Origin: a virus
IMG/VR virus record: IMGVR_UViG_3300049617_000275
Span: 1 to 64,000 of that record
DNA: 64,000 bases
Direction: 5' to 3' (one strand)
Positions 3,569 through 32,450 of the stretch are shown here, in pieces. The stretch's first letter is position 1, and the number at the start of each line of letters is the position of its first letter. The position numbers and the translations under genes were made by a program. Under the pieces are notes generated by a model that saw nothing but the letters and a program-made list of their open reading frames with translations, was not told where the DNA came from and did no database searches.

Positions 3569-6500
3569 ATGTACGGATTTTACAACGGATACCCCCTTTT
3601 TGGCGGCACTTCGGGTTCTTCTGGAGGCGGGGGAGCAGATGTTGATGGCTACTATGTCCTCACACAATCGGATGCTGGTCTTCCCAACTCTTCTGTACTA
3701 ACTCCGGGCGTCGGTATTGCAATAAATGTAAGCGGCGGACTTTGCACAGTTTTGAATACGGTTTCTGGTTCAGGAACCGGCAGTGTTACTTCGTTTTCCG
3801 CGGGTAATCTTCAGCAATTATTTACCACTTCTGTTGCAAATCCCAATTCCACTCCTGCTCTTACTTTCTCTCAAATATCCCAAAACGGGAATCTTATATA
3901 CGCCTCTCCCTCCGGAGGAGCGGGCAATCCTTCCTTTAGGGCTCTCTTGGGTCCAGATCTGACATCCGCTCTCGAAGCCGGAAACAATATAACTCTTACT
4001 TCTAACGGCTCAGCGCTGTTGATTGCAACGGTTAACTCCGGCACGGTGTTTTCAGTAGGGCTTTCTATGCCTTCTATCTTCACAGTAGGAGGAACAAACC
4101 CAATCACAGGCTCGGGGAGTTTTAATGTAACTCTTGCAAACGAAAATGCAAATCTATTCTTTGTCGGCCCCGCTTCCGGCTCCTCCGCAGGACCTACATT
4201 CAGAGGGATTGTAGGAAACGATATTGTAAATGCCTTGATTGCGGGATCTGGAATCACTCTTGTCAACCAGGGCTCTGCCATCCTTGTTTCTTCTACAGCT
4301 ACTTCTTCTTCCTCCGGGACAGTAGCTTCGGTCTCCTGTACTTCTCTTTCTCCGCTGTTCTCTACAACGGTTGCAAATGCTTCTTCCACTCCGGCGATAT
4401 CTTTTACTCTAACTCCGCAAGCTTGCGGAACATTTCTTCGAGGTCCTTCCGCCGGAGCAAATGCTGCCCCCACTTTCGGAGGAGTTACCGGCAATGACCT
4501 CTCCGGAGTCCTGATCTCAGGAACAAACTCTTCTGTGGTCAACAACGGTTCTACAATCCAGGTCAACGTTCCTAATGCCCTTGGGGGCACAGTGACCTCT
4601 GTAACCGTTCACGGCACTCCGGAGATGTCTTCAGCAGGAAATCCTATAACAGGATCAGGTACTGTTCAGTTAGGATGGAATAGTGAGTCTGCCAACCTTT
4701 TTATGGCTGCTCCTTCTGCCGGTTCAGGAATTCCAGGATTTCGTGCTCTTACAGGAAACGATCTTGTTGGGGTACTTGTTGCCGGTTCAGATATCCAACT
4801 TACAAACAACGGGTCTACTCTTACAATAACAGCTTCTGCCCCCTCCGGCGGGAGTTCGGGAACCGTTACTTCTGTTGCAATGTCTGTTCCTCCTGCTCTT
4901 CTTTCGCTCACAGGATCGCCCATTACAGGAGCGGGGACTCTAGCAGTCAGTCTTGTAAATGCTTCTTCTACAACACTGTGGGCAGGACCCTCGGCCGGAG
5001 CTGCGGGAAGTCCTGGATATAGAGGACTCACAGGAAATGACATTCCCTTGGTTTCGGGAACAAACACGACCGTGGTCAACAATGGAGCTACGCTCCAGAT
5101 CAATGTTCCTTCTCCTTCTTATCCTGTAACAAGTGTAAGCAACTCAGATGGAACCCTTACAATTTCTCCTTCTACAGGAGCTGTTGTAGCGTCTATTGCG
5201 AACTCCGCTGCCCTGCCTGGGTCGCCTACCACTACTACCCAAAGTAGCACAGATAATTCAACAAAGATTGCAACAACCTCTTACGTTACAACTGCTGTTG
5301 CAAATGCAATTGCAGGAGTAAATCCCGCTGTTGCCGTACAAGTTGCAACCGTTTCCTCTTCTGACACCTCAGGACTTACTTACAACAACGGAGTCTCCGG
5401 GGTCGGAGCCACTTTCACTGGATCGACAAATACTGCTCTGACCTTCGATGGGGTAACCTTAACGTCGTTAAACCAACGTGTTCTTGTAAAGAACGACACT
5501 CAAAGTGGGAATCCTGGAGCATACAATGGAATCTACACTTTAACCCAACTCCAAACTGTTGGATTACCTCCTATACTCACACGGGCTGTGGATTACGATC
5601 AGCCCTCAGATATAAACAACACCGGCGCAATACCTGTTGTTTCGGGAACGGTAAATGCTGATACGAGTTGGTTGCTAACTTCTACCGTAGCTACTGTAGG
5701 AACAAGTGTTCTTACTTACACGCAGTTCACCTTAAATCCATCAAGTATTGTAACTGGAGCAGGTAACTTAACTCCTTTATTCACTACTTCTACTTCTGGA
5801 AATACTATTTCATTTAGTCTAACTAACGCCTCTGCGCATACAGTTTATTGTAATACTTCTGGAAGTTCTGCTGCTCCTGGGTTTAATGCTTTAACATTAA
5901 CTGCTGGAAATGGATTAACTGGAGGAGGTAATATAACAACCTCACCTACAGTTTCTGTAAGTCTTGGTGGAAGCTCTACTTATACTTCCGGAGCGTTAGT
6001 ATATGCTTCTAGTACAACAGCTTTAAGTGGATTAGCCCCAACTAATGGTGGAGTTTTAAGCTGTGCTTCAAGTATTCCTGTTTATTCATCTGCTGGATCT
6101 TCCGGACAACTATTACAATCTAATGGAACAAGTGCTCCATCTTTTACAACTAATACATGGCCTTCTACAGATACTAAAGGTGATTTAATTTATGCTTCTG
6201 CAAATAATCAAATTGCTGGATTAGCTATTGGTGCTACTAACTCTTTCTTAATTAGTAATGGAACTCTTCCAGTATGGACTTCAGCACAGAATGCACTTAA
6301 TGAATTAGCATCGGCTGGCGGCACCCCTACAAATGGACAAACGCTAATCTACAGTTCAGCAACTGAAAATTGGACTCCTGGTTCTGGCAGCATAATTCCT
6401 TCTGGCGAGGTTGGAGGAAGAATATATCTTGTATCTGGATCTCCGCTTGTAGACGGAGCCTCCGGAGGCAATTCAACAATATACTACGGGCCTTATACAT

Positions 6501-7237
6501 CCAATGTGGTAACAATCGGAGGAACTACTCAAACCTTTTCTGAAGCTTCTCTAGCTCTCTCCACTTCTGCCTCGGCATATTGGGTATATGTAAAATCCGC
6601 CGGAACAAGTTCTATAAGTCTAGGAACAGCGGCTTGGACAAATAATACAACTCCCTCTACTACCTACTCTCTTAACGGACAGATATATGCTGACTCCGGG
6701 CACACAGAACTTATTGTAGGAGGTATATATTGCCCCTCCGCTTCATCTACCCAAGACTGGCCAGGAGCTAGATGTATAAGTAATATCTATAATCCTATTC
6801 ATAAAATCTTAAGTGCTGTAGAAACATCTTCAAATTGGTCTACAAGCAGTGCTTCATGGAGTACTATGAATGGCTCTACAACTATCGGCACTCAGAGAGT
6901 AATAGTCTTTTGTACTATACCCACACCGGTAAATATAGAAACTAAAGTAAATATGTTTATGAGTAATCAAGGAAATATTTTCTCCGGACTTTTAGGATTA
7001 GCTTTAGATAGCGTATCTGTTTCTACTGCAAAGAGTGTAGTATTTGGCTATAGTTATCCCGGAGGACCTCTAAACGCTTCTGTCAGCACTAACTTAGTGG
7101 GTTTTCACTATTTTCAAAATCTACAAGCAGCCACTGACTCCGGAACTGCTACTTTTTATGGAGGTACGGGACAAGTAAATAGTGCTGGTCCCTCGGACGG
7201 ATATAACTGCTATATGTTAGGGAATGTGTTTTGCTAA
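3569..7237 (+). CDS. tail fibre protein (1222 aa) built from tandem repeats
   Basis: ATG follows a CCGCCGGAGG Shine-Dalgarno. There are at least five repeats of about 90-100 aa (GTVTSV..NPITGSGT..ANLF.AGPSAG..P.FR.LTGNDL). A DNSTKIATTSYV motif typical of phage tail fibres follows. The C-terminal part is AT-richer. Confidence 0.85.
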   Translation: MYGFYNGYPLFGGTSGSSGGGGADVDGYYVLTQSDAGLPNSSVLTPGVGIAINVSGGLCTVLNTVSGSGTGSVTSFSAGNLQQLFTTSVANPNSTPALTFSQISQNGNLIYASPSGGAGNPSFRALLGPDLTSALEAGNNITLTSNGSALLIATVNSGTVFSVGLSMPSIFTVGGTNPITGSGSFNVTLANENANLFFVGPASGSSAGPTFRGIVGNDIVNALIAGSGITLVNQGSAILVSSTATSSSSGTVASVSCTSLSPLFSTTVANASSTPAISFTLTPQACGTFLRGPSAGANAAPTFGGVTGNDLSGVLISGTNSSVVNNGSTIQVNVPNALGGTVTSVTVHGTPEMSSAGNPITGSGTVQLGWNSESANLFMAAPSAGSGIPGFRALTGNDLVGVLVAGSDIQLTNNGSTLTITASAPSGGSSGTVTSVAMSVPPALLSLTGSPITGAGTLAVSLVNASSTTLWAGPSAGAAGSPGYRGLTGNDIPLVSGTNTTVVNNGATLQINVPSPSYPVTSVSNSDGTLTISPSTGAVVASIANSAALPGSPTTTTQSSTDNSTKIATTSYVTTAVANAIAGVNPAVAVQVATVSSSDTSGLTYNNGVSGVGATFTGSTNTALTFDGVTLTSLNQRVLVKNDTQSGNPGAYNGIYTLTQLQTVGLPPILTRAVDYDQPSDINNTGAIPVVSGTVNADTSWLLTSTVATVGTSVLTYTQFTLNPSSIVTGAGNLTPLFTTSTSGNTISFSLTNASAHTVYCNTSGSSAAPGFNALTLTAGNGLTGGGNITTSPTVSVSLGGSSTYTSGALVYASSTTALSGLAPTNGGVLSCASSIPVYSSAGSSGQLLQSNGTSAPSFTTNTWPSTDTKGDLIYASANNQIAGLAIGATNSFLISNGTLPVWTSAQNALNELASAGGTPTNGQTLIYSSATENWTPGSGSIIPSGEVGGRIYLVSGSPLVDGASGGNSTIYYGPYTSNVVTIGGTTQTFSEASLALSTSASAYWVYVKSAGTSSISLGTAAWTNNTTPSTTYSLNGQIYADSGHTELIVGGIYCPSASSTQDWPGARCISNIYNPIHKILSAVETSSNWSTSSASWSTMNGSTTIGTQRVIVFCTIPTPVNIETKVNMFMSNQGNIFSGLLGLALDSVSVSTAKSVVFGYSYPGGPLNASVSTNLVGFHYFQNLQAATDSGTATFYGGTGQVNSAGPSDGYNCYMLGNVFC

Positions 7238-7668
7238 TGTCCGCATACTCACAAATTTTATTTTTGAATACTTATACGGCTTCCGGATGTGTAGGATGCA
7301 ATGGAGATCCTAACTGTGTAGATCCAGGTCCTTACGGTCTCATATATGTAGAAGGAACAGATCTTTCTGTACAGGCACAGATACTTACTGCCGCCGAGAG
7401 TTTCGATTGGAATCAAACTCCTCCTCCAGTGCCTAACATTGCAGGACTTATAGCCGCTGTAAAGACAGAACCTACCTTCAATGCACAAATAAGAACTGGA
7501 CTCGGGGGTCTATGTGCGACTCTTCTCGCAACAGGAATTACCTATGCTCAGCAGGAATACAACGATGCCGTAGAGACATACGGTAGTACTTGGCTTACTC
7601 CGGCGGTTCAGGCCACTCTCCTTGCATACTTTGTACAGTTTAACATCCCCATTGTGGCTGCTTCGTAG
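7237..7668 (+). CDS. hypothetical protein; fibre assembly chaperone by position only
   Basis: ATG overlaps the fibre stop (TAATG). The product is 143 aa and the gene lies immediately downstream of the fibre gene. Confidence 0.55.
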   Translation: MSAYSQILFLNTYTASGCVGCNGDPNCVDPGPYGLIYVEGTDLSVQAQILTAAESFDWNQTPPPVPNIAGLIAAVKTEPTFNAQIRTGLGGLCATLLATGITYAQQEYNDAVETYGSTWLTPAVQATLLAYFVQFNIPIVAAS

Positions 7669-8741: not shown

Positions 8742-9520
8742 CAATGCAGATAGTTTTGGTCCACGGTATCCTCGAAACAGATTCCTCTGCCGAGGTCCTT
8801 ATAAAGGATTGGTGTTTTAACCCCCAAGGATATATAAAACCTACAACCCGTGTCTCCGCGGCGTTCTGGGGAGATTTATCTTCTGCTCAAGAAAAGAAAA
8901 CACTCCGAACTTCTTGGGGAGACAAGATAGAAGATGGGGTCTACAAAGCTGCCACAAACAATTCTCTCCTCAAGGACTGCTACAACTACTTTTACAACGA
9001 GGAACTCCGGGCGGAAATACAGCAGAGATTCTTTTCCTGTATTGCGGCAATGTCCCCCGGAGACGACGTATGCATTATTTCCCACTCCCAAGGTACGGTA
9101 ATTGCTTACGAATGTCTCCTCAAAATGGAATTGGGAACAGCTCCGGCGCTTCCCGTAGTTAACTTCACAAACCTTATTACTATCGGAAGCCCCCTAGGTT
9201 TAGAGCAGATGCGGGCGGAGTTAAGAACTGCAAACAGTATTCCCAAGCTGCACATTCCCAAGAATGTTTGGAAGTGGGAGAACTTCAACGACATCCGAGA
9301 TCTTGTTGCAGCAGTACATAAGATATCTTCTCTGTACCCTGTAAAACAGGACAAGCTCGGTCCGGAGACAAATCCTTCCTTTGTTTACCCTATACAGGAT
9401 ATCCAGGTCGTAAATCCATGGACTCCGGCGGACGGAGGATTTTTCTTTCACGACATCGATACTTACCTCCAAGTTCCTGTTATCCGGGATACTATCCGCG
9501 CAGCACAGGGATTGCATTAG
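8738..9520 (+). CDS. alpha/beta-hydrolase (lipase/esterase-like serine hydrolase)
   Basis: ATG overlaps the previous stop (ATGA). It has VLVHGI near the N-terminus and a GxSxG-type nucleophile elbow, IISHSQGT. Confidence 0.65.
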   Translation: MTMQIVLVHGILETDSSAEVLIKDWCFNPQGYIKPTTRVSAAFWGDLSSAQEKKTLRTSWGDKIEDGVYKAATNNSLLKDCYNYFYNEELRAEIQQRFFSCIAAMSPGDDVCIISHSQGTVIAYECLLKMELGTAPALPVVNFTNLITIGSPLGLEQMRAELRTANSIPKLHIPKNVWKWENFNDIRDLVAAVHKISSLYPVKQDKLGPETNPSFVYPIQDIQVVNPWTPADGGFFFHDIDTYLQVPVIRDTIRAAQGLH

Positions 9521-10790: not shown

Positions 10791-13088
10791 TTGATATCCA
10801 GAAAAGAAGTAGAAGATCTTATATACGAGGTCTCCGGCGCCTTGTCGGTTGAAGAAAAGAGGAGCAAAGCTCTCTCTGCTCTTTCTCTGGTCTCTACTCC
10901 GGTAACTCACGATGCGGTTAAAGGTGCAGATCCGGAAGTTCTGGAAGGCATTGTTCAGGACATAATCGAGAAACTTGTATCTCTTCTCCGCGCAATCGAC
11001 GCCGGAGAAAAATCTTCCGAATCCAAATCCAAAGAAGTAGAGTTGGATGGAAACGACAACGTAGTTCTTCCCATTGACAACTCCCCGCTTGTTCCCCCTT
11101 CTCCGGGAGAGCCGAATACGCTTGTAGGAACGATTGATCCTAACGCAACTGGGATTCCAGACAATGCCCGTAAGTCTGCACCCAAAACTATGGATGCCGA
11201 TCTTATGGAACAGTTGGATCATCCTAATTTTCCTACATATTCCGATATGGATACAGAGAAGTATCCTACAGTTTACTCCGGCGATGAGTCGCAGATATCT
11301 TCTTCCGACGAAGTTGCGGGGAGTAAGGATCTGGGGAACACTCCACCGCATACTCTGGATCAGTTCTATCCTGTGAAAGTAGGAGACTTCGTATCCTGGG
11401 CTTCTCCCCTAGGAAGATCCTTCGGGCAGGTGGAAAGTATTGTTTTTGCAGGACAGGTGAACATTCCTGACTCCGGCAACAGTCTTGCAATGATTGCAAC
11501 AGAAGAAGATCCTGTCTGTCAAACTCGTATTTACAGAAACGACTCCGGGGAGGGATGGAGTAAAACCGATACTGTTACTTCCCTCAAGATGTCTGCTCTC
11601 TACAGAATCGATCCTTTGGAAGGTCCCCGTGCTCTTCCGCCGGTGTTACCTAACTCTCGGTCAAACTCATACTCCGCGCCGGAGTGCCAAAAGATCCTAA
11701 ATAGAAAAGGATTGGGACATTTCAAGGCCCTCGACAACGGAACAGTTTCTGTTGTCAAGAACTTCCAGATAGGAAAAGCAGAAGTTCAGAAAGACATAAA
11801 CTCCGTGAGCTTAGGAAGCGGCGGGAGTAGAAAATCTTCCTTTGACATAACCGGAGAGGATAGAGCACTTCTAGGATCAGATTGGATACCCGACGGAAGT
11901 ATATGCTGCGACGTTGTTGCAGCCGACTCGGACGTTGACAGAGGGAATGAACAGTTCCTTTCTCCTTCCTTAGATCAGCTCGCTCTTCTTTACAAAGGGA
12001 TGCCTTTACTTTTAGATCATGATTGGTCGGCTAGGAATATTGTAGGAAAGATTCTCTCCGGAAGAAATGACTCCGGCGAGCTTGTACTCCGGGCATTTGT
12101 TCCCAACACAGACGCTAACAAATGGGTTGTTGATGCAATCAAATCCGGAATCTTCTGTAAGGTATCCGTGGGATTTGCATCTTCTCCGGATTGTATGCTC
12201 TGCTCCGTTTGCAAGATTTCCATGTCTTCGGAGACGTGCCCTCACCAACCAGGAGAGACAACTCCTTTAGGAACTCCGGTAGTTCTCCAATACTCCGGGG
12301 TGTCAGATGTTTACGAAGTGTCCATTGTAGGAGTCCCTATGCAACGCAACGCGAGGATAAAAGGAGTTCATAGTCTCTTAGATTCCATTCTCCCGACAAC
12401 CGAAAAGAGACTGTTAGATAGAATTTCTTCCGAGACCAATACTAAAGGAACTGTTGAATTGTCTACTAAAGAAGTTACTCCGGCGGAGAAAGAAAATTTG
12501 ATGCCTCAAACGGCAGTCGATCCACAGTCTGCTGGAACCTTGGATGACCCGGTAGTTCCTGGAACTGCAAAATCTGCCGAAGACATGCCTAAAGAGAATC
12601 CCGGTGAAGAACCAGGAATGAATAAGGGTTTTGGTGCGATGCACGACAAGATGGATGCCCATTCCAAGATGATTGGGGAAGTCCATCAAGCTCACGAGAA
12701 TTTGAAAAACGATGTTGCCAAGATGTTCGGTACTTTGCAGCAAGTTCACGACACCTGCGGGGACATCGGGCGTAAATTAGAAGATGTTCACAGCAAGTGC
12801 GATGCCATGCATGGGTTGATGAAGTCTTTCTCCGGCGCTTCTGAGTCTATTCAGAAGGAACTAACTACCAACAAGGAAGAAAACGACGCAATACTTGTGA
12901 AATTTGCACAGGCGCTGGTAGAAATTCATAAGATGTTGGAAGTAGGTATGTCCGTATCTACGGAAACTATTCGTAAGCAGTTGTCTCAGGACAACCTTGC
13001 GCGGGAGAATGCTCTCCAAAAATCCACAAAATACTGGGTCCAAGAAGTATTTGGCTCAGACAACAATGACTCTGGAGGTCAACAGTAA
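10791..13088 (+). CDS. prohead protease (HK97/S78-like) fused to a scaffold-like coiled-coil C-terminus (765 aa)
   Basis: The central part carries VVAADSDVDRGNEQF...LLLDHDW..VGKI...GELVL....VDAIKSGIFCKVSVGF, which matches the prohead-protease pattern. The C-terminus is His/Lys-rich and helical. The TTG start is uncertain. It lies directly upstream of the capsid gene. Confidence 0.7.
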   Translation: MISRKEVEDLIYEVSGALSVEEKRSKALSALSLVSTPVTHDAVKGADPEVLEGIVQDIIEKLVSLLRAIDAGEKSSESKSKEVELDGNDNVVLPIDNSPLVPPSPGEPNTLVGTIDPNATGIPDNARKSAPKTMDADLMEQLDHPNFPTYSDMDTEKYPTVYSGDESQISSSDEVAGSKDLGNTPPHTLDQFYPVKVGDFVSWASPLGRSFGQVESIVFAGQVNIPDSGNSLAMIATEEDPVCQTRIYRNDSGEGWSKTDTVTSLKMSALYRIDPLEGPRALPPVLPNSRSNSYSAPECQKILNRKGLGHFKALDNGTVSVVKNFQIGKAEVQKDINSVSLGSGGSRKSSFDITGEDRALLGSDWIPDGSICCDVVAADSDVDRGNEQFLSPSLDQLALLYKGMPLLLDHDWSARNIVGKILSGRNDSGELVLRAFVPNTDANKWVVDAIKSGIFCKVSVGFASSPDCMLCSVCKISMSSETCPHQPGETTPLGTPVVLQYSGVSDVYEVSIVGVPMQRNARIKGVHSLLDSILPTTEKRLLDRISSETNTKGTVELSTKEVTPAEKENLMPQTAVDPQSAGTLDDPVVPGTAKSAEDMPKENPGEEPGMNKGFGAMHDKMDAHSKMIGEVHQAHENLKNDVAKMFGTLQQVHDTCGDIGRKLEDVHSKCDAMHGLMKSFSGASESIQKELTTNKEENDAILVKFAQALVEIHKMLEVGMSVSTETIRKQLSQDNLARENALQKSTKYWVQEVFGSDNNDSGGQQ

Positions 13089-19836: not shown

Positions 19837-20841
19837 ATGCCCTCACAAAGTTTTATCATCGGCGTCGCCGGAGTTAGCATCTATCAACCCATTACTACTT
19901 CTCTGCCGTCTGCGTCGGGAGTAGGGTTTACTGTAACTACTATGGCTCCTACTGTCTCTATCCCAAATGACATCCGGGGACCGTTGATCTCGGGAACTGC
20001 CTATCAAGTCATCTGGGCGTTCTTAGGACACGACTCTGTCAACAACGGCTACACCGTAACGGCAGGCAGTTCTGCCTCCGGTGCGGTTACTCCGTCTACC
20101 GGACAAGGATTGCTTGTAAATATTCCTGTAGGAAACTTCCCCGCCGGGAGTTCTAACACTCCGGCCATTGCAATTTTCACAAAGGCAGGAAACGGCAACT
20201 ATAATCTAAATGAGTTCGCATACTACAACGCTAATTCAGGTTACGATTTCAACCACTTCCTCGGATATTCTCCTCTGTTCTCTGCTCCGGGCAACTTTAC
20301 TGCCTCCCTTCTGCAATCTGCATCTTCGGACCCTGTCCTGGGATCGCGTTCTGCTGTGGGCTGGAGCAAGTCTACTCTATCTCCAACAACCGGCGGTGTA
20401 AGAGTAACACGTGAAGTAACTCAGGTAACTGTACGTCCAGATACATCTGCCGACTTCCCGATTGCTACAACCCGTACAGCGGAAATTACTTTCCAACTCC
20501 TACCGAACGACATCATAAACGTTGTCGAAGGTAACGCAGGTACGTATGTTCAATACACAGCTTCCAACGGATTTATCTACGAAGAAGCTCAGATGTCTAT
20601 CAACACTGCATCTGCGCTGATCACTGGAAACAATCCGATGGTTCTGCTCATGCCTCCGGATAACTCCGGAACTCAGGCAGTCCGCCTGTATCTAGGACAA
20701 CTGCTTCAGAACCAGACCCAGAACGTAGAAAACTGGACAAAGACCGACACTGCGCCTATCGGATATACCTACAGCGCCGTTGCAATTGACACCCTCACAG
20801 TCTCTATGCCTACCGAAATCCAATCCAAAGTAATCCTGTAA
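19837..20841 (+). CDS. abundant structural protein candidate (334 aa; tail tube/sheath-like by position)
   Basis: AAGGAAG Shine-Dalgarno. The protein is S/T/G/A-rich and is followed by a strong terminator. The function is positional inference only. Confidence 0.55.
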   Translation: MPSQSFIIGVAGVSIYQPITTSLPSASGVGFTVTTMAPTVSIPNDIRGPLISGTAYQVIWAFLGHDSVNNGYTVTAGSSASGAVTPSTGQGLLVNIPVGNFPAGSSNTPAIAIFTKAGNGNYNLNEFAYYNANSGYDFNHFLGYSPLFSAPGNFTASLLQSASSDPVLGSRSAVGWSKSTLSPTTGGVRVTREVTQVTVRPDTSADFPIATTRTAEITFQLLPNDIINVVEGNAGTYVQYTASNGFIYEEAQMSINTASALITGNNPMVLLMPPDNSGTQAVRLYLGQLLQNQTQNVENWTKTDTAPIGYTYSAVAIDTLTVSMPTEIQSKVIL

Positions 20842-20872
20842 CCTACATCTTTCGCTCAGCCAATCCGCAGAG

Positions 20873-20904
20873 AACTCTCTGTATAATACCGGAGAGTTTT
20901 TTGT
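20873..20904 (+). terminator. rho-independent terminator
   Basis: Hairpin AACTCTC-loop-GAGAGTT is followed by TTTTTT. Confidence 0.65.
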
Positions 20905-20990
20905 TAGGAGAAATAATAGATTGATCAAGAATATAAAGGTTTACCCCTACGAAGAATATACTTCCTTTACAGTTTGTAGACTGTGGGGCG

Positions 20991-21290
20991 ATGGATGGGT
21001 TTGGGCCTTGCACAAGGTTTGACAGGAAAACAGCGGAAGAGATAATTGCCTTTATAGATGAGAATAGGAATCTCCCCGGAGAACAGACTTTACATGTAAA
21101 TTGCATGGTAGGTAAGAGCCGCTCCGGCGCGATTGCAACTTTTGCGTGCTGGTATTTGGGATTAAACCTCGAAGAGTTCAAAAATGCGAACATACAGATT
21201 GTTCCTAACCTCCACATTTTGAACACTCTGATGTCCGTTTTACAGGAGAGATACGAGCCCGGAGGCGCTCTCAAAAAAGTTTCTGCGTAG
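20991..21290 (+). CDS. minimal CX5R protein phosphatase-like protein (99 aa)
   Basis: HVNCMVGKSRSGAIATFACWYLG contains the HCxxGxxRS/T P-loop of dual-specificity/tyrosine phosphatases. There is no upstream in-frame start, so it is unusually short. Confidence 0.6.
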   Translation: MDGFGPCTRFDRKTAEEIIAFIDENRNLPGEQTLHVNCMVGKSRSGAIATFACWYLGLNLEEFKNANIQIVPNLHILNTLMSVLQERYEPGGALKKVSA

Positions 21291-21293
21291 GTA

Positions 21294-21322
21294 TTGACAC
21301 CCGTCGAGGGGTGTGGTATAAA
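21294..21322 (+). promoter_or_regulatory. strong sigma70-type promoter TTGACA-N17-TATAAA
   Basis: The -35 is at 21294-21299, the spacer is 17 nt and the -10 is at 21317-21322. No ORF follows for about 830 nt. Confidence 0.65.
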
Positions 21323-21673
21323 TATAGAGTCTGAAACGAACGAGGTGGGACTCACTAACTGACACCCCCAGCAGGAATCTAGGTTAGTGCTTTTTAAGTC
21401 TGACTCCCGAAGACTATAAAAATAGGGAATACCGCCCGATGGTGCAACAGCTACCAATACACCTGAGGATTTAATTCCTCTTATAAGGCGCGATAGTTGA
21501 CTCCGATAAACTTTAAACTCTCGGAGCCTTTTGCAAACAGGTTGATTGATCCTTATTCCTGTTCGCCCAGTCGGAAAAATAGAAAGGATCTACTTTAAGG
21601 GTAGGTTAGTCCTATGTTCCCTGAATCGATCTTGCAGCGCAACAAGGGGATTTGAATACAAAGGGCCGTGTTC

Positions 21674-21744
21674 TTGAAAAGAGCTGGTAGGACACAGCAC
21701 CTGCGTTCAGCAGGGAGATAGGGGTTCGAGTCCCCTTTTTCGAG
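21674..21744 (+). ncRNA. tRNA-like element 1 (non-canonical anticodon arm)
   Basis: Acceptor TTGAAAA/TTTTCGA, extendable to 11 bp. D arm GCTG-GTAGGACA-CAGC, T arm AGGGG-TTCGAGT-CCCCT. The anticodon arm is only 15 nt (CCTGC-GTTCA-GCAGG). Confidence 0.35.
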
Positions 21745-21753
21745 AACTACATC

Positions 21754-21826
21754 CGGGAAATAGCTTAGTGTTCAAAGCTCTGTCGGAGGTGACAGAAGAT
21801 CGGAGGTTAAAATCCTTCTTTTCCGG
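21754..21826 (+). ncRNA. tRNA-like element 2 (6-nt anticodon loop)
   Basis: Acceptor CGGGAAA/TTTTCCG, D arm GCTT-AGTGTTCA-AAGC, T arm GGAGG-TTAAAAT-CCTTC, anticodon arm CTGTC-GGAGGT-GACAG. Confidence 0.35.
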
Positions 21827-22065
21827 GAGGCTACATCAGTTCTCGGCTAGCGGTCGCGGAACACAAAGGCTTACCGTTGAGCCAGCCTGGCGAATCAGCG
21901 GTACTTCTTCGAAGCAGGAACATACTTTCTCAGCAATCCTGGAACTTGCCGCTAAGGCAGTTCAAACAGGCAGAGGAAGAAGGAGGTAGCACCTCCGGAT
22001 CTCGGTAGCCCGAGCAGGAGTCTGGCGCGTTTCCTGGGAGTAGCTCTCTAAATAATCGCCCGGAT

Positions 22066-22137
22066 GCGGATGTGGTATATACGTCTGTGCCGCAGTGCTC
22101 CACACTGTAGAATCGAGTTCGAATCTCGACCTCCGCT
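22066..22137 (+). tRNA. tRNA-Gly(UCC)-like, with C33 and one acceptor mismatch
   Basis: Acceptor GCGGATG/CCTCCGC with a T6-C67 mismatch. The D stem is weak (G-C, U-G, A-U, U-G). Anticodon arm GCAGT-GCTCCAC-ACTGT, T arm TCGAG-TTCGAAT-CTCGA. Confidence 0.45.
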
Positions 22138-22151
22138 TAAGGTAATTAAAA

Positions 22152-22478
22152 ATGCTGATGACTTGGATAATAACTCTTTACATCCTCCAAAATACCATCC
22201 TCTGTGGAACTGTTTCCAACGAGAAAGGATATATAGGAATCAGAGAGGATTGGCATAAAGGTATCCAGAAGGTATGTATTGCTTCTCCGGCGGACGTTGC
22301 AGGGATATGTCCGGGAGACAAAATTGTTCGGGTAGAGGGGGTTGCTGGGCTAAAGGAAGAGGTTCGAGGACCCGTAGGTTCCACAGTTAAAATAACTGTG
22401 CGCCGGGGAGTCGAGTATCTTGAATTCCAGGTAAAGAGAGTCCCTCACGCTTCTATCGATTGGAAGCACCGGAAGTAA
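22152..22478 (+). CDS. small PDZ-domain protein with a hydrophobic N-terminal signal/anchor (108 aa)
   Basis: MLMTWIITLYILQNTILC is followed by ASPADVAGICPGDKIVRVEG....GPVGSTVKITVRRG, the PDZ pattern. Confidence 0.7.
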   Translation: MLMTWIITLYILQNTILCGTVSNEKGYIGIREDWHKGIQKVCIASPADVAGICPGDKIVRVEGVAGLKEEVRGPVGSTVKITVRRGVEYLEFQVKRVPHASIDWKHRK

Positions 22479-22481
22479 TCC

Positions 22482-23015
22482 TTGTCCTCGATCAACAACA
22501 TCCCCCTCTTTGCCTTTGCCGGAGCTTATCTAGGCAATTACGGCTCCGAGTCTACAATGTTTGCACTCACGGATCTGCGTACCAACGGGGCTTCGATCTT
22601 AGAAGAGTTTCCTACTCAGTTCGAGGTTGTTTTAAACAACGATATTCAGACCGGGAATCATAAGATGACCGTAGAACTGGAATTCATTGCAGATGGACTT
22701 TCCACCGGCCTTCTCTCCCGCGGCCTCTATTACAATCCCACCGGCGGAACTATCAACGCACCCAACAACTACTTTACATACAATCTCCTGCTTCTAGCTC
22801 CCGGCGGGACTTTGCAGGACTCTTTCTTTTTCCCCCAGTTGAGGACAATAAAGGTAAGGAACCTCCAGTACAGAAAAGATCAGGCTACGACCACCCGCAT
22901 AACTTTCTCTTGGGAGCAGAGGAACGTGAATGTCACTCTCTTCTATCAAGACACAATCGAGAATCTTATCAACAACACCCCGCTCGGACCCATTTCTCCG
23001 ATAACATTGTCGTAA
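22482..23015 (+). CDS. structural protein (177 aa), tail-tube candidate by size and position
   Basis: TTG start with a GGAAG Shine-Dalgarno. No motif recognised. Confidence 0.5.
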   Translation: MSSINNIPLFAFAGAYLGNYGSESTMFALTDLRTNGASILEEFPTQFEVVLNNDIQTGNHKMTVELEFIADGLSTGLLSRGLYYNPTGGTINAPNNYFTYNLLLLAPGGTLQDSFFFPQLRTIKVRNLQYRKDQATTTRITFSWEQRNVNVTLFYQDTIENLINNTPLGPISPITLS

Positions 23016-26081: not shown

Positions 26082-29000
26082 GTGGCCGACGATAACACCT
26101 TAAATATCCCGGTAAGCCTCACCGGAGACTTTGCAAAGATAGAAGCTCTCAAGAAAGGCTTCTCTGTTCCTACAGGAATATCTCTTGCCGGAGAAGGATA
26201 TCAAGAACTCAAGGCTCTATCTGTTAAGCCCATAACAGTCAACATAAACTTGAAAATAGGAGGATCGGACTGGTCCAAACTCCAGGATCTGATACAGAAT
26301 GGGGCTACGATAAATCTAAAGACTTCGGACGGAAGCTCCCGGAGTCGTACTCCTAGAAATATTCCTGTTCCCCCAAACCCTATAGAAACCAAGAAAGGGG
26401 AGTCTGTTGCAGAGTATGACCGAAGACAAATAGAAAGATACCAACAGGAATACGACAAATTCATCCGTTCTCGGATTTCGGATGTTGGAAGTTTGTCTAA
26501 CAATGATAAAGCGAAGCTTCGAGAGCTAGGATATTTAGATAAACCTTCTCTTAACTCTCAGGAAAGAGCAAAGAACTCCCGCGACCTTTACAGAGCTACA
26601 AAGCAATCTGTAACTAGATTCAACGAGCGCAAGCCTATTGATGACCCGGAGAGACAGGCCAACTCCCGAAATCTGTATAGCTTTCTCCGTGCAAGAGAAA
26701 ATTCTTCTCCCATAAATCCCGATGTAGATGTATTGAGACAGAAGGCTGTTACAGAGGCTCTCCGTAAACAGTATGGGAAGTCAGATTCCTCCGATTTGTC
26801 CGGACTTAAATCTCAACTCTCCGGAGTTTTGGGCTCTGTGTCTCCTAAAGCCGTTTTGGGAGCCATACCTGAGCAGTCTCCTGCGGATGTGGGAGCTCAG
26901 CGAAGAAATAAAGTCCTCGGAGAATTACGTAAGAAATATGCCAAGACCGACAATCAGGATTTCTCCTTTCTAAGAAGTATCTCCGGCCCGCTCTCTGCTC
27001 GGAATGTAAAGGACACCCTCGCTGCAATTCCCGATTTATCTCAAGCAGATATCGAATCTGCCCAGAGGCAGGATGTATTGGACTCTATCCGAAAAAGATA
27101 TGGAGGAAGAGGGAACGGATCGAACGACGATAACAACTTTAGCTCCCTACGCCCTCAACTGGAGAAAATAGCTTCCAGGAAAAATATTATAGATAGGGAT
27201 TTAGGTAAAGCCGCAAATGCTATTCCTTCTCCTATAAATCCAGCATATTTAAATGGACCTTTTATTCCTCCGCCTCAATCTCCTCAAGACGCCCGAAGGA
27301 TAGAAATTCAGGAAAGAAAGGATTTCCTAAGACAAGGAAATATAGAGCGGGCACAGGAAGAGTTCTACAGAAGTTCTCTTTTCACTCCCCGCGAAAAAGC
27401 TCTTAAAAACGCGGCTTTCAACAACAATCTCCTTCCAAAAGATCTCGCACATTTAGGAAACAGAAACCCTCTTAACCTAGCACAAAGATTCGATCAATCT
27501 TCTACCCGTGATCTTCTCTTTTCCCTCCTTGTGGGAGGCGGGGGAGGTCTAGGTAAGTTAGGAGGTGTTACAGGAAGTGTAGTAGGCACCGCAATTGGAG
27601 GACCGGGTGGAGGTCTTATAGGATCTTTGGCTGGACAATTCGCCGGAGAGAAACTTTCCGAGACTTTCAATCAACTAACTGAGAGTTTCCGAAGTGCAAC
27701 AGAGGCTGGAAAAGCTTTCCAACAGTCTGTTACTTCTATAGGAGCTGTGCTCAACAACACAACGGAAATTGCGTCTCCTGCCGGAGGGGATCAATTTGCT
27801 CTCCAAACTCAAAGAGCAAGAGAATTCCAATTGGAAGCCAGGAAAAATCTACTTCCTTTCGGTATCGCCGGACAAAGCGAAGTAGCGGTAGCCCAGGGTC
27901 TTGCAACAGGACTTGTCCCTCGCGTGCCTGGTATATCCGCACAGCAATTCGGAAAGCTTGCAGGAGCCTTAGGAGCGACCTCTCAGGTCCTTAGACCGGA
28001 TCTTGCTCAAAACCCTACTCGATATCTAAAAGATGTAGAAGATCTTTCTTCCGGAAATACCTCCGCGGCCCGTAGGACGGAGCTAGGTATTGCTCTCAAC
28101 ACTGCTTCGCCGGGGTTTATAGAGAAGTTGGCCAATGCTCAAACCTCCGAAGATATAGATGAGCTTACAAAATCCCTGCAAGGCTTCCAAGACGCTCTTT
28201 CCAAGACGTCTACTGGAAGCAGACAGTTAACAGTTATTGCCGGAGTGTTCGATAAGCTGCTGACAGCCTTCGGAGACAAACTCCTGGATTCCCAAGTTGA
28301 TGGGCTCAAGAAGCTTGTAGATGTTTTAACGGATGAGAAACTCACCGAGGATGCAGAAGCTCTGGGCGATGCTTTGGGCAAGCTTGCTTCAAGTATTGAG
28401 AGTGCCCTTGCAGGTGTGCTGGAATCTGTTAAAAACTTTACTTCCGGTGTCTCCGGCGCTGTCTCTCTTCCTGGACATCTTGCGGAGTTTAGCAAAAACC
28501 CTGGACCTGAGACCGCCTTATCTCTTGCAAAAGATCTGAAAGGATTAACTTCGCTGGGAGACAAAACAGACCCTCAACTTCAGAAACTCAGAGAATACCT
28601 AGACGGAGCAATAGAGAAATTCTCTGGTGTTGTAAAACCTGCTCTTGAAGCTCAACAGAAATTCTCTGGCGCCCTCAAGAGTTTATTCCAGCAAGCCGGA
28701 GCGGGCGGAGACGAATCCCCTTCTGACTATCTAGACAAGGAAACTTCTTCTTCTCCTACATATAAACTTGCTTACAACGATGCAATTCGCCAAGCCCTCA
28801 ATGCTCCGGCCGGAGGAATTTCCCGTAATCCTTTGACAGGGGAGATAATATCTCGCAATATCTCTCAAGAAGAAGGGGTGCCTGAGGCACAACTCAAGAA
28901 TGCCTTCGAGACTCTCAAAAACCTAGATTCCGAATTTTCGGAGAAATCCAAGAATATAGATACTGGATTTCTGGGGGAAGGAGATAACGGAGGTCTCCGG

Positions 29001-32278: not shown

Positions 32279-32296
32279 CGCTATTTCATTACACTA

Positions 32297-32368
32297 TCCG
32301 AGTAAAGAATGTCGAAATCTTGGCCCCTTGCTCCCAAAGCAAGTGCTCTTCCTCTGAGCTACACCCGG
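32297..32368 (-). tRNA. tRNA-Pro (anticodon UGG)-like, antisense to the flanking genes, weak T stem
   Basis: Reverse strand fold. Acceptor CCGGGTG/TACTCGG, TA-GCTC-AGAGGAA-GAGC D arm, anticodon arm CTTGC-TTTGGGA-GCAAG, T arm AAGAT-TTCGACA-TTCTT with a 53-61 U-U mismatch. Confidence 0.55.
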
Positions 32369-32450
32369 ACCCATATTTTATCTCTAAAGTTCGCCGGTGT
32401 CAAGGATAGAATAGGGTCGAACAGTAGGAAAAGGAAGAGAGATAGATAAA

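Follow-up and report, generated by a model that had tools for sequence, protein, structure and literature searches.

A promoter-proximal cluster of three tRNA-shaped genes with U33-less, closable anticodon loops in a novel tailed phage

The DNA analysed here, hereafter the window, is a 64,000-nucleotide (nt) stretch of part of a novel tailed phage (positions 1 to 64,000 of IMG/VR record IMGVR_UViG_3300049617_000275; the parent contig is ~108 kb long). Between a small phosphatase-like gene and a PDZ-domain gene it carries a largely non-coding locus of ~0.85 kb, in which three tRNA-shaped genes, here termed E1, E2 and E3 (Table 1), lie clustered behind a promoter. Their anticodon loops lack U33 and can clamp shut. 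The locus is a hypervariable tRNA/moron slot between a conserved structural gene, coding for a 334-amino acid (aa) protein, and the tail module. Judged by sequence, the loop designs of E1 and E3 probably reflect selection rather than decay. In the reading that we prefer, and to which we give an even chance, the genes are functional phage tRNA variants whose loop flanks were selected to escape host anticodon-loop enzymes, with decoding of Glu and Gly codons retained.

Three cloverleaves with non-canonical anticodon arms

Exactly three cloverleaves were found in the locus. With default settings, ARAGORN called a tRNA-Glu(ttc) at 21673-21745 and a tRNA-Gly(tcc) at 22066-22137, and the tRNA model of Rfam reported E1 and E2 and left E3 unreported. 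A covariance model derived from 48 tRNAs of this phage clade and run with the filters off (R1) detected all three, and nothing else in the locus scored >5 bits. A sequence-blind cloverleaf scanner likewise found only E1-E3, with 19-21 of 21 pairs formed, and a profile hidden Markov model (HMM) agreed. No single element was recognised by every standard tool, though each was recognised by one or more. These searches bore out an initial annotation, made by hand folding, that had placed three tRNA-like elements with aberrant anticodon arms here, and the arms of E1, E2 and E3 were correct as first described. That annotation had allowed that standard tools might return ordinary 7-nt loops and so expose a misfolding; E1 reaches 7 nt only if a C:G pair is opened, and E2 is read in relaxed mode only, with 8 nt. 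Its assignment of E3 as a Gly-UCC reader with C33 agrees with the default ARAGORN call, which has the loop GCUCCAC. Short-query blastn searches of E1-E3 against INPHARED gave generic T-arm similarity only.

All three elements have a 7-bp acceptor, a D arm, a 5-bp anticodon stem, a 5-bp T stem and a 7-nt T loop (UUCGAGU in E1, the variant UUAAAAU in E2 and UUCGAAU in E3). Their fold z-scores (-3.10 for E1, -2.2 for E2 and -2.39 for E3) are comparable to the -2.26 of the canonical tRNA-Thr in this phage, and CCA is encoded in no tRNA of the window. In none of the three does the anticodon loop unite the canonical features of 7 nt, U33 and a purine at position 37. They share one loop style: U33 is replaced, by G, G and C in E1, E2 and E3, respectively, and the outer loop bases are complementary (C:G, C:G and G:C). 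Clamping of these outer bases would shrink the loops to 5, 6 and 5 nt. Minimum free energy (MFE) folds close the anticodon arms further, to 5 bp and 5 nt in E1, 7 bp and 4 nt in E2, and 6 bp and 5 nt in E3. Registers that give U33 (UCA in E1, CCA in E3 and a 7-nt CGGAGGU loop in E2) were rejected by hand, since the stems are then unpaired. No helix is disrupted, and the irregularities affect only 5-8 of the ~72 nt of each element. The central triplets UUC (E1), GAG (E2) and UCC (E3) are kept and match the most used codons of the phage, GAA (57% of Glu codons), CUY (CUU and CUC together make up 50% of Leu codons) and GGA (55% of Gly codons and 5% of all codons).

The acceptor of E1 can be extended to 11 bp with its flanks, its D stem has 4 bp, and its T arm reads GGGG-UUCGAGU-CCCC. 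The anticodon arm (21700-21714) is CCUGC-GUUCA-GCAGG, with a 5-bp stem and a 5-nt loop. ARAGORN, omitting nucleotide 26, offers the alternative 7-nt loop C32-G33-UUC-A37-G38, in which the C:G pair is open; with N26 present, the arm is more simply a 5-bp stem with a 5-nt loop. The same design was found at L012:12657-12725 (L numbers denote contigs), in a relative with 47% identity, whose arm CCGCC-GUUAA-GGCGG has a G·A on top versus the A·G of E1. As ARAGORN reads them, with a 4-bp stem topped by A·G or G·A, both genes are like the tRNAs with 4-bp anticodon stems, which account for 5.6% of bacterial tRNAs and are commonest among Sup-UUA (PMC13092985); no discussion of U33 was found in that paper.

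A pattern scan of IMG/VR returned C:G-closed GUUCA loops in L047, L070 and L133 and GUUAA loops in L094, L095 and L096, all inside tRNA arrays of contigs without protein similarity to this phage. Several of these genes are called Glu(ttc) or Stop(tta) by default ARAGORN. A complementary scan of IMG/VR added GUUGA loops, likewise C:G-closed and in arrays of unrelated contigs (L321, L329 and L364), and found no GUUUA loops. The E1-type genes of L070 and L096 have a tRNA-Glu-type D arm (UC-GUCU...GGAC/AGAC), and the GUUGA gene of L321 has a Gln-type body, with U1:A72 and G73. In five contigs (L012, L094, L095, L096 and L070) the E1-type gene stands alongside a tRNA-Glu(UUC) whose loop has 7 nt. 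The triplet of some E1-type genes is UUA, which would read a stop codon, and their phages show no sign of recoding. The IMG/VR recurrences come from scans of 2.9 million contigs that were aimed at exactly these loops, so that they show occurrence and not frequency.

E2 has the arm CUGUC-GGAGGU-GACAG (21780-21795), which forms either a 5-bp stem with a 6-nt loop or an 8-nt loop, C-G-GAG-G-U-G. Its body (D loop AGUGUUCA, T loop as above) resembles two tRNAs with canonical anticodon loops, the tRNA-Lys(CUU) of L001 and the tRNA-Thr(UGU) of the IMG/VR contig L010; GG is absent from its D loop. The best-looking IMG/VR match to the E2 loop was rejected, as it is not a tRNA but lies within a gene for a tail protein in Vi1-like Salmonella phages. 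Loops of 8 nt occur in frameshift-suppressor/quadruplet-decoding tRNAs (PMC9094753). E2 is like these in the relaxed ARAGORN reading, tRNA-?(gagg), which has an 8-nt loop and the 4-base anticodon GAGG. Well-known suppressor loops of 8 nt keep U33 and a purine after the anticodon, and E2 has no U33. E2 might read codons of Leu/Pro type or quadruplet codons; the genes of the window gave no frameshift or recoding signal.

In E3 the anticodon arm (22092-22108) is GCAGU-GCUCCAC-ACUGU, with a 7-nt loop, C33, A37 and a G32:C38 pair capable of Watson-Crick geometry. The identity elements of bacterial tRNA-Gly are G1:C72, C2:G71, G3:C70, U73, C35 and C36, and E3 has all of them; its acceptor contains a single mismatch, U6·C67. 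A closely similar arm, ACAGU-GCUCCAC-ACUGU (16 of 17 positions identical), occurs at L239:4519-4597(-), in an array of at least 16 tRNAs. The acceptor of that gene is likewise of Gly type and is followed by U73 and a CCA end, and its D arm is as odd as that of E3. In a cultured T5-like phage, Klebsiella phage vB_KpnS-VAC35 (L274; MZ571828.1, ~26160-26245), the annotated tRNA-Pro and tRNA-Thr have beside them a tRNA-Gly(UCC)-like gene that lacks annotation; its loop is canonical and its D arm atypical.

C33 is not confined to E3. Five relatives have a tRNA-Ile(GAU) with the loop CCGAUAA (Table 1), whose acceptor and anticodon stems covary. The top scores among the clade's tRNAs belong to genes of this group (up to 72 bits in R1 and 61 bits in Rfam), which is conserved and evidently functional. 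Across nine other phage arrays, C33 was found in ~10 of 124 tRNA matches.

Table 1. Features of the locus and its flanks in the window, and other tRNA-like genes with deviant loops or arms in phage contigs
Feature	Position	Strand	Remarks
Cysteine-phosphatase-like gene, 99 aa, HC(X)5R motif	20991-21290	+	phrog_5614, E 1.4e-11; weak Pfam DSPc, E 0.011
σ70-type promoter	21294-21322	+	-35 TTGACA 21294-21299; 17-nt spacer; TGn (TGG) 21314-21316; -10 TATAAA 21317-21322
Leader, ~340 nt, no assignable feature	21330-21673	+	Non-coding; no excess structure, homologue or tRNA remnant
E1, tRNA-Glu(UUC)-like	21674-21744	+	ARAGORN Glu(ttc); Rfam 34.4 bits; R1 31.1 bits
E2, tRNA-like gene	21754-21826	+	Rfam 44.9 bits; R1 38.7 bits; ARAGORN only at -ps80
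E2-E3 spacer, ~240 nt, no assignable feature	21827-22065	+	Includes hairpin GGAGGU-AGC-ACCUCC, 21982-21996
E3, tRNA-Gly(UCC)-like	22066-22137	+	ARAGORN Gly(tcc); R1 32.2 bits
PDZ-domain gene, 108 aa	22152-22478	+	Pfam PDZ_6, 2e-06; probably co-transcribed with the tRNA cluster
C33 tRNA-Ile(GAU) genes	L001:7233-7303, L003:10425-10495, L005:10740-10810, L006:8893-8963, L012:17716-17789		
tRNAs with deviant T loops	L001:6482-6552, 7083-7153, 7233-7303, 9150-9222, 10940-11005; L005:10740-10810; L006:8399-8469		
tRNA-Ile(UAU)-like genes	L001:7471-7561, L012:18912-19004, L070:9788-9879(-)		L070 without detected similarity to this phage
tRNA-like genes with A33 or 8-nt loops	L012:19154-19225, L070:9164-9235(-), L095:7344-7413(-), L052:5597-5670(-)		

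Promoter, transcript and non-coding parts

The promoter sequence TTGACA-17-TATAAA in front of the locus is as the initial annotation had given it, and it has an extended -10 besides, provided by TGG directly upstream of TATAAA. Five sites in the window, this one included, have at most one mismatch to TTGACA-N17-TATAAT; sites with at most two mismatches number 15, against 5.1 ± 2.3 expected, a three-fold enrichment. Transcription would start near 21329-21331. The tRNA-Pro(UGG) gene of the window lies on the minus strand (32296-32369) among plus-strand genes and has a promoter of its own (32403-32375), which ends 6 nt upstream of it; therefore this phage habitually places tRNA genes behind host-type promoters. 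The tRNA-Pro promoter reads TTGACACC...-17-ATAAAAT, and an extended -35, TTGACACC(S)G, is common to the promoter-like sites at 21294, 32403, 50956 and 56519.

A terminator scan found no terminator between E3 and the PDZ gene, whose ATG (22152) is 14 nt past E3, and a Shine-Dalgarno (SD)-like motif, UAAGGU (22138-22143), abuts the 3' end of E3. Transcription probably continues into the PDZ gene and the genes downstream, so that the promoter would serve them too; because the transcript probably runs on in this way, the locus is not a closed 0.85-kb RNA gene. The promoter would transcribe, in order, the leader, the adjacent E1 and E2, the spacer, E3 and probably the PDZ gene, and RNase P/Z-type processing would free the three tRNAs.

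Leader and spacer together make up two thirds of the locus (~570 nt). The initial annotation had seen no credible open reading frame (ORF) in the ~830 nt behind the promoter, and this stands: no ORF within 21291-22151 is longer than 73 aa, in each of the six frames the codon log-odds lie below or close to zero (the best, a 43-aa ORF at 21877-22008, reaches ~+0.07 bits per codon), and PHROG and Pfam searches of the ORFs gave no match. The genes flanking the locus have positive codon log-odds in one frame. Its description of these parts as dense in local hairpins did not hold up, since against dinucleotide shuffles the z-scores are -0.46 for the leader (21328-21672) and -1.51 for the spacer (21828-22065), that is, structure at chance level.

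The initial annotation had also proposed one large ornate phage non-coding RNA of the GOLLD/ROOL kind, which would incorporate the tRNA-like domains. The locus is like GOLLD and ROOL in being a phage-borne non-coding region beside tRNAs; the non-coding stretch is long and lies behind a strong promoter, and as a whole (813 nt) it folds with z = -3.06. This value is, however, carried by the three tRNAs, the remaining segments having the z-scores given above. A search of 20800-22500 (1.7 kb) with Rfam 15 at E ≤ 10 found no GOLLD, ROOL, transfer-messenger RNA (tmRNA), intron or other large RNA; at the gathering thresholds and at E ≤ 10 only tRNA and chance matches to mir-7918, SNORA11 and ALIL were returned. 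ARAGORN found no tmRNA either, by default or relaxed (-m -ps80). The non-tRNA parts have no similar sequence in the relatives, in INPHARED or elsewhere in the window, and comparison of the locus with the relatives' slots and the rest of the window by blastn and tblastx gave nothing, gene remnants included. Nor did leader and spacer contain tRNA remnants detectable by relaxed ARAGORN with introns, the structure-only scanner, R1 with the filters off or an nhmmer profile of the clade. The locus thus differs from GOLLD and ROOL: it matches no covariance model of theirs, and outside the tRNAs it is neither structured beyond chance nor conserved. We regard a large ornate RNA as scarcely credible. 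Leader and spacer would be ordinary array spacer without demonstrable function of their own; in the array of L012, inter-tRNA spacers of ~100-250 nt are usual.

Two minor features of these parts were noted. A D-arm-like repeat, TAGGTTAGTGCT, present in three copies, was rejected as being at chance level, the expectation having been obtained by simple arithmetic. A perfect SD core, GGAGGU, occurs both in the E2 loop (21785-21790) and in the spacer hairpin (Table 1), where its partner ACCUCC equals the anti-SD core of 16S rRNA; no start codon follows either GGAGGU, and this may be coincidence.

The tRNA slot of the phage clade

Portal, major-head and protease PHROG matches lie upstream of the locus, and a SU10-type capsid gene is present in the relatives. 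No nucleotide match to the window was found in INPHARED (megablast and blastn, with the locus and its surroundings). The 334-aa protein encoded upstream of the slot belongs to a clade of 21 homologous proteins, the nearest of which is 67% identical; scans of IMG/VR and GTDB genomes with the protein or its alignment found nothing. Downstream of its orthologue, L001/L002, L003/L004, L005, L006 and L012 have arrays of 6 to >21 tRNAs, with small ORFs and HNH endonucleases interspersed, and these relatives are at 47-67% amino-acid identity. In L007, L008, L011, L013 and L014 the tail genes close up after the 334-aa gene, and the interval contains no tRNAs and few or no small ORFs. The array of L001 begins directly after a homologue of the phosphatase-like gene and is preceded by a TGn-TAGAAT element. 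Because the relatives' arrays sit in the same slot, the locus is the tRNA slot of the clade and not a free-standing RNA gene.

Like the tRNA clusters of T4, T5 and the mycobacteriophages of cluster C1, and like the arrays of L001-L006 and L012, the present cluster consists of head-to-tail tRNAs with a host-type promoter, in a variable region flanked by conserved modules and with spacers. It is also like known phage tRNA clusters in that its anticodons match heavily used phage codons. It is unlike them in that every member has a non-canonical anticodon loop, and in that the leader of 340 nt and the spacer of 240 nt dominate.

The homologue of the phosphatase-like protein in L001 (98 aa, 6077-6373) precedes the tRNA array directly; phrog_5614 is of unknown function, and a role of this ~99-aa protein in RNA-end chemistry or tRNA metabolism is conceivable. 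The PDZ protein had no homologue in a search of 5.8 billion proteins. After the tRNA slot of three relatives lies a gene for a ~825-aa protein with major-vault-protein shoulder/Vault_3 Pfam matches (L003:10746-11002, L004:10078-10334 and L006:9304-11005), and in L013 (13014-14174) a TnpB/Cas12f-like (OrfB_IS605) gene is inserted in the tail module.

Other deviant tRNAs were met in phage arrays (Table 1). Some tRNAs of the clade have the T loops GGCAGNA or GGAAGAA instead of UUCRANN, and part of these were missed by ARAGORN and/or Rfam. Three phage contigs contain tRNA-Ile(UAU)-like genes of 91-94 nt with an extra arm of ~20 nt past the anticodon stem. Further deviant anticodon loops have A33 (CAUAUAA) or 8 nt (CAUUUGAG, GAUCAUAA and CUGAUGGG).

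Selection, decay or mimicry

According to van den Berg et al. (2023, PMC10264068), phage tRNAs have anticodon-loop substitutions that should protect them from VapC, PrrC and colicins, and T5 tRNAs have been proposed or shown to act against retron and PARIS effectors (PMC11555353, PMC11464382). By the same logic, the loop flanks described here would evade host anticodon nucleases or modification-type toxins that recognise the canonical 7-nt U33 loop, and E1 and E3 would still supply Glu and Gly decoding, possibly less efficiently. As in the proposed nuclease-evading tRNAs of PMC10264068, the anticodon is kept here and the flanking positions 32, 33 and 38 are non-canonical; in the available text of that paper no report of U33 loss or of a change in loop length was found, and the present genes have no U33 and loops able to close to 4-6 nt. 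With gamma-toxin, an anticodon nuclease specific for tRNA-Glu(UUC), G33, a purine at position 32 or a purine at position 38 cuts cleavage by at least 85% (PMC2275089); by analogy, E1 with G33 and G38, and E3 with G32, may carry determinants of this kind. Aberrant loops make up ~12% of the tRNA-like matches of the relatives, so that by simple arithmetic three of three would arise by chance with a probability of ~0.002. Plain decay is disfavoured because the helices are intact, the three loops have one style, the triplets fit preferred codons, the Gly elements are kept and the designs recur.

Several observations weigh against functional, nuclease-evading tRNAs. E1 has G8 and G14 in place of the usual U8 and A14, and the D arm of E3 is atypical and without G18G19. 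No second E2-type loop turned up, since none of 19 IMG/VR pattern matches was a tRNA. Decoding by E1 and E2 may be poor or absent, because U33 is near-universal and a stable 32:38 Watson-Crick pair disfavours an open 7-nt loop. C33 is without effect on gamma-toxin cleavage (PMC2275089), so the C33 of E3 need not be a resistance change. The preferred reading gives no function to the ~570 nt of leader and spacer, and no RNA-repair, ligase or nuclease-related gene was seen nearby among the ~40 ORFs scanned. It is also possible that the IMG/VR recurrences are rare independent pseudogenes.

The initial annotation had offered a decaying tRNA array as another explanation. Its identity as an array is supported by the arrays in the relatives' slots; the decay is doubtful, with the helices intact and the E1 and E3 loops recurring. 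In full, this explanation makes E1-E3 promoter-proximal pseudogenes, and leader and spacer the rubble of lost tRNAs or morons. The slot is indeed highly variable, five relatives having no tRNAs there, and the spacers are long and unexplained. Besides the G8 and G14 of E1 there are defects in the D loops of E2 and E3, which have no GG, and in the acceptor of E3, and the Rfam scores (34 and 45 bits, with E3 unreported) compare with 40-63 bits in most tRNAs of the clade. The ascertainment bias of the pattern scans and these defects outside the loops keep the pseudogene reading alive. Yet all four helices are intact in three of three genes, with 5-8 nt of each affected, and neither tRNA remnants (covariance model and profile HMM) nor gene remnants (tblastx) were found in leader or spacer. 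Arms of the E1 and E3 types recur in other phages with their stems compensated or identical, and the kept triplets match the preferred codons of the phage. On balance we consider decay unlikely. The evidence also agrees with a mimic or nuclease explanation, likewise suggested at the outset, and the mechanism that we prefer is one version of this. In its stricter form the elements are non-decoding tRNA mimics, namely decoys or competitive inhibitors of host anticodon nucleases, tRNA-modifying enzymes or aminoacyl-tRNA-dependent enzymes, and the closed anticodon hairpin would act as uncleavable bait. This form is kept alive by the loss of U33, the 32:38 pair, the lack of U8 and A14 in E1, the E1-type genes that are extra copies beside a 7-nt-loop tRNA-Glu(UUC) in five contigs, and the members with UUA in phages without sign of recoding. 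The closed forms with 4-5-nt loops are thermodynamically preferred in MFE folds, and the arm of E3 is kept between unrelated phages in sequence and not just in pairing, which hints at a sequence-specific binder. Nevertheless, the triplets track body identity (Glu-type and Gln-type) and codon usage, which decoding explains more simply, there is no candidate partner protein in the neighbourhood, and the idea is purely inferential; it appears distinctly unlikely.

The cloverleaves might instead be punctuation, i.e. signals for cleavage by RNase P/Z that split the leader from the PDZ/tail mRNA or free leader and spacer RNAs. Such processing needs only intact acceptor and T arms, and the tRNA cluster of phage T4 gives a precedent with its stable RNAs. 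In addition, E3 and the PDZ gene have no terminator between them, the SD-like motif begins directly at the 3' end of the tRNA, and the leader is 340 nt long, whereas the promoter of the minus-strand tRNA-Pro abuts its gene. Punctuation would, however, leave the preserved anticodon stems and the recurring loop designs unexplained, and leader and spacer are without structure or conservation, which makes it very unlikely.

Returning to selected loop designs, we put forward tentatively, as possible rather than probable, that E1 and E3 are members of a hitherto undescribed class of recurring phage tRNAs with clamped, U33-less loops, which tRNA-rich phages would keep as either nuclease-proof decoders or uncleavable decoys against host immunity aimed at the anticodon loop. 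In tRNAs of this putative class a Watson-Crick 32:38 pair would leave the pentaloop N33-anticodon-A37. Candidates for it are the pentaloops G-UUC-A, G-UUA-A and G-UUG-A, in bodies of the Glu, ochre and Gln types, and C-UCC-A, in bodies of the Gly type.

ARAGORN and Rfam call such genes inconsistently, with labels such as Glu, Stop or '???', and phage tRNA inventories and 'suppressor tRNA' annotations call for careful reading. Phage tRNAs are now viewed as counter-defence against host tRNA-cleaving immunity, and the substitutions described in the available text of PMC10264068 appear subtle. If U33-less clamped tRNAs are functional, they would reveal how far the anticodon loop can be remodelled with decoding kept or deliberately lost. 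In that case they would also provide simple sequence signatures for counter-defence tRNAs and, indirectly, for the host nucleases that they answer.

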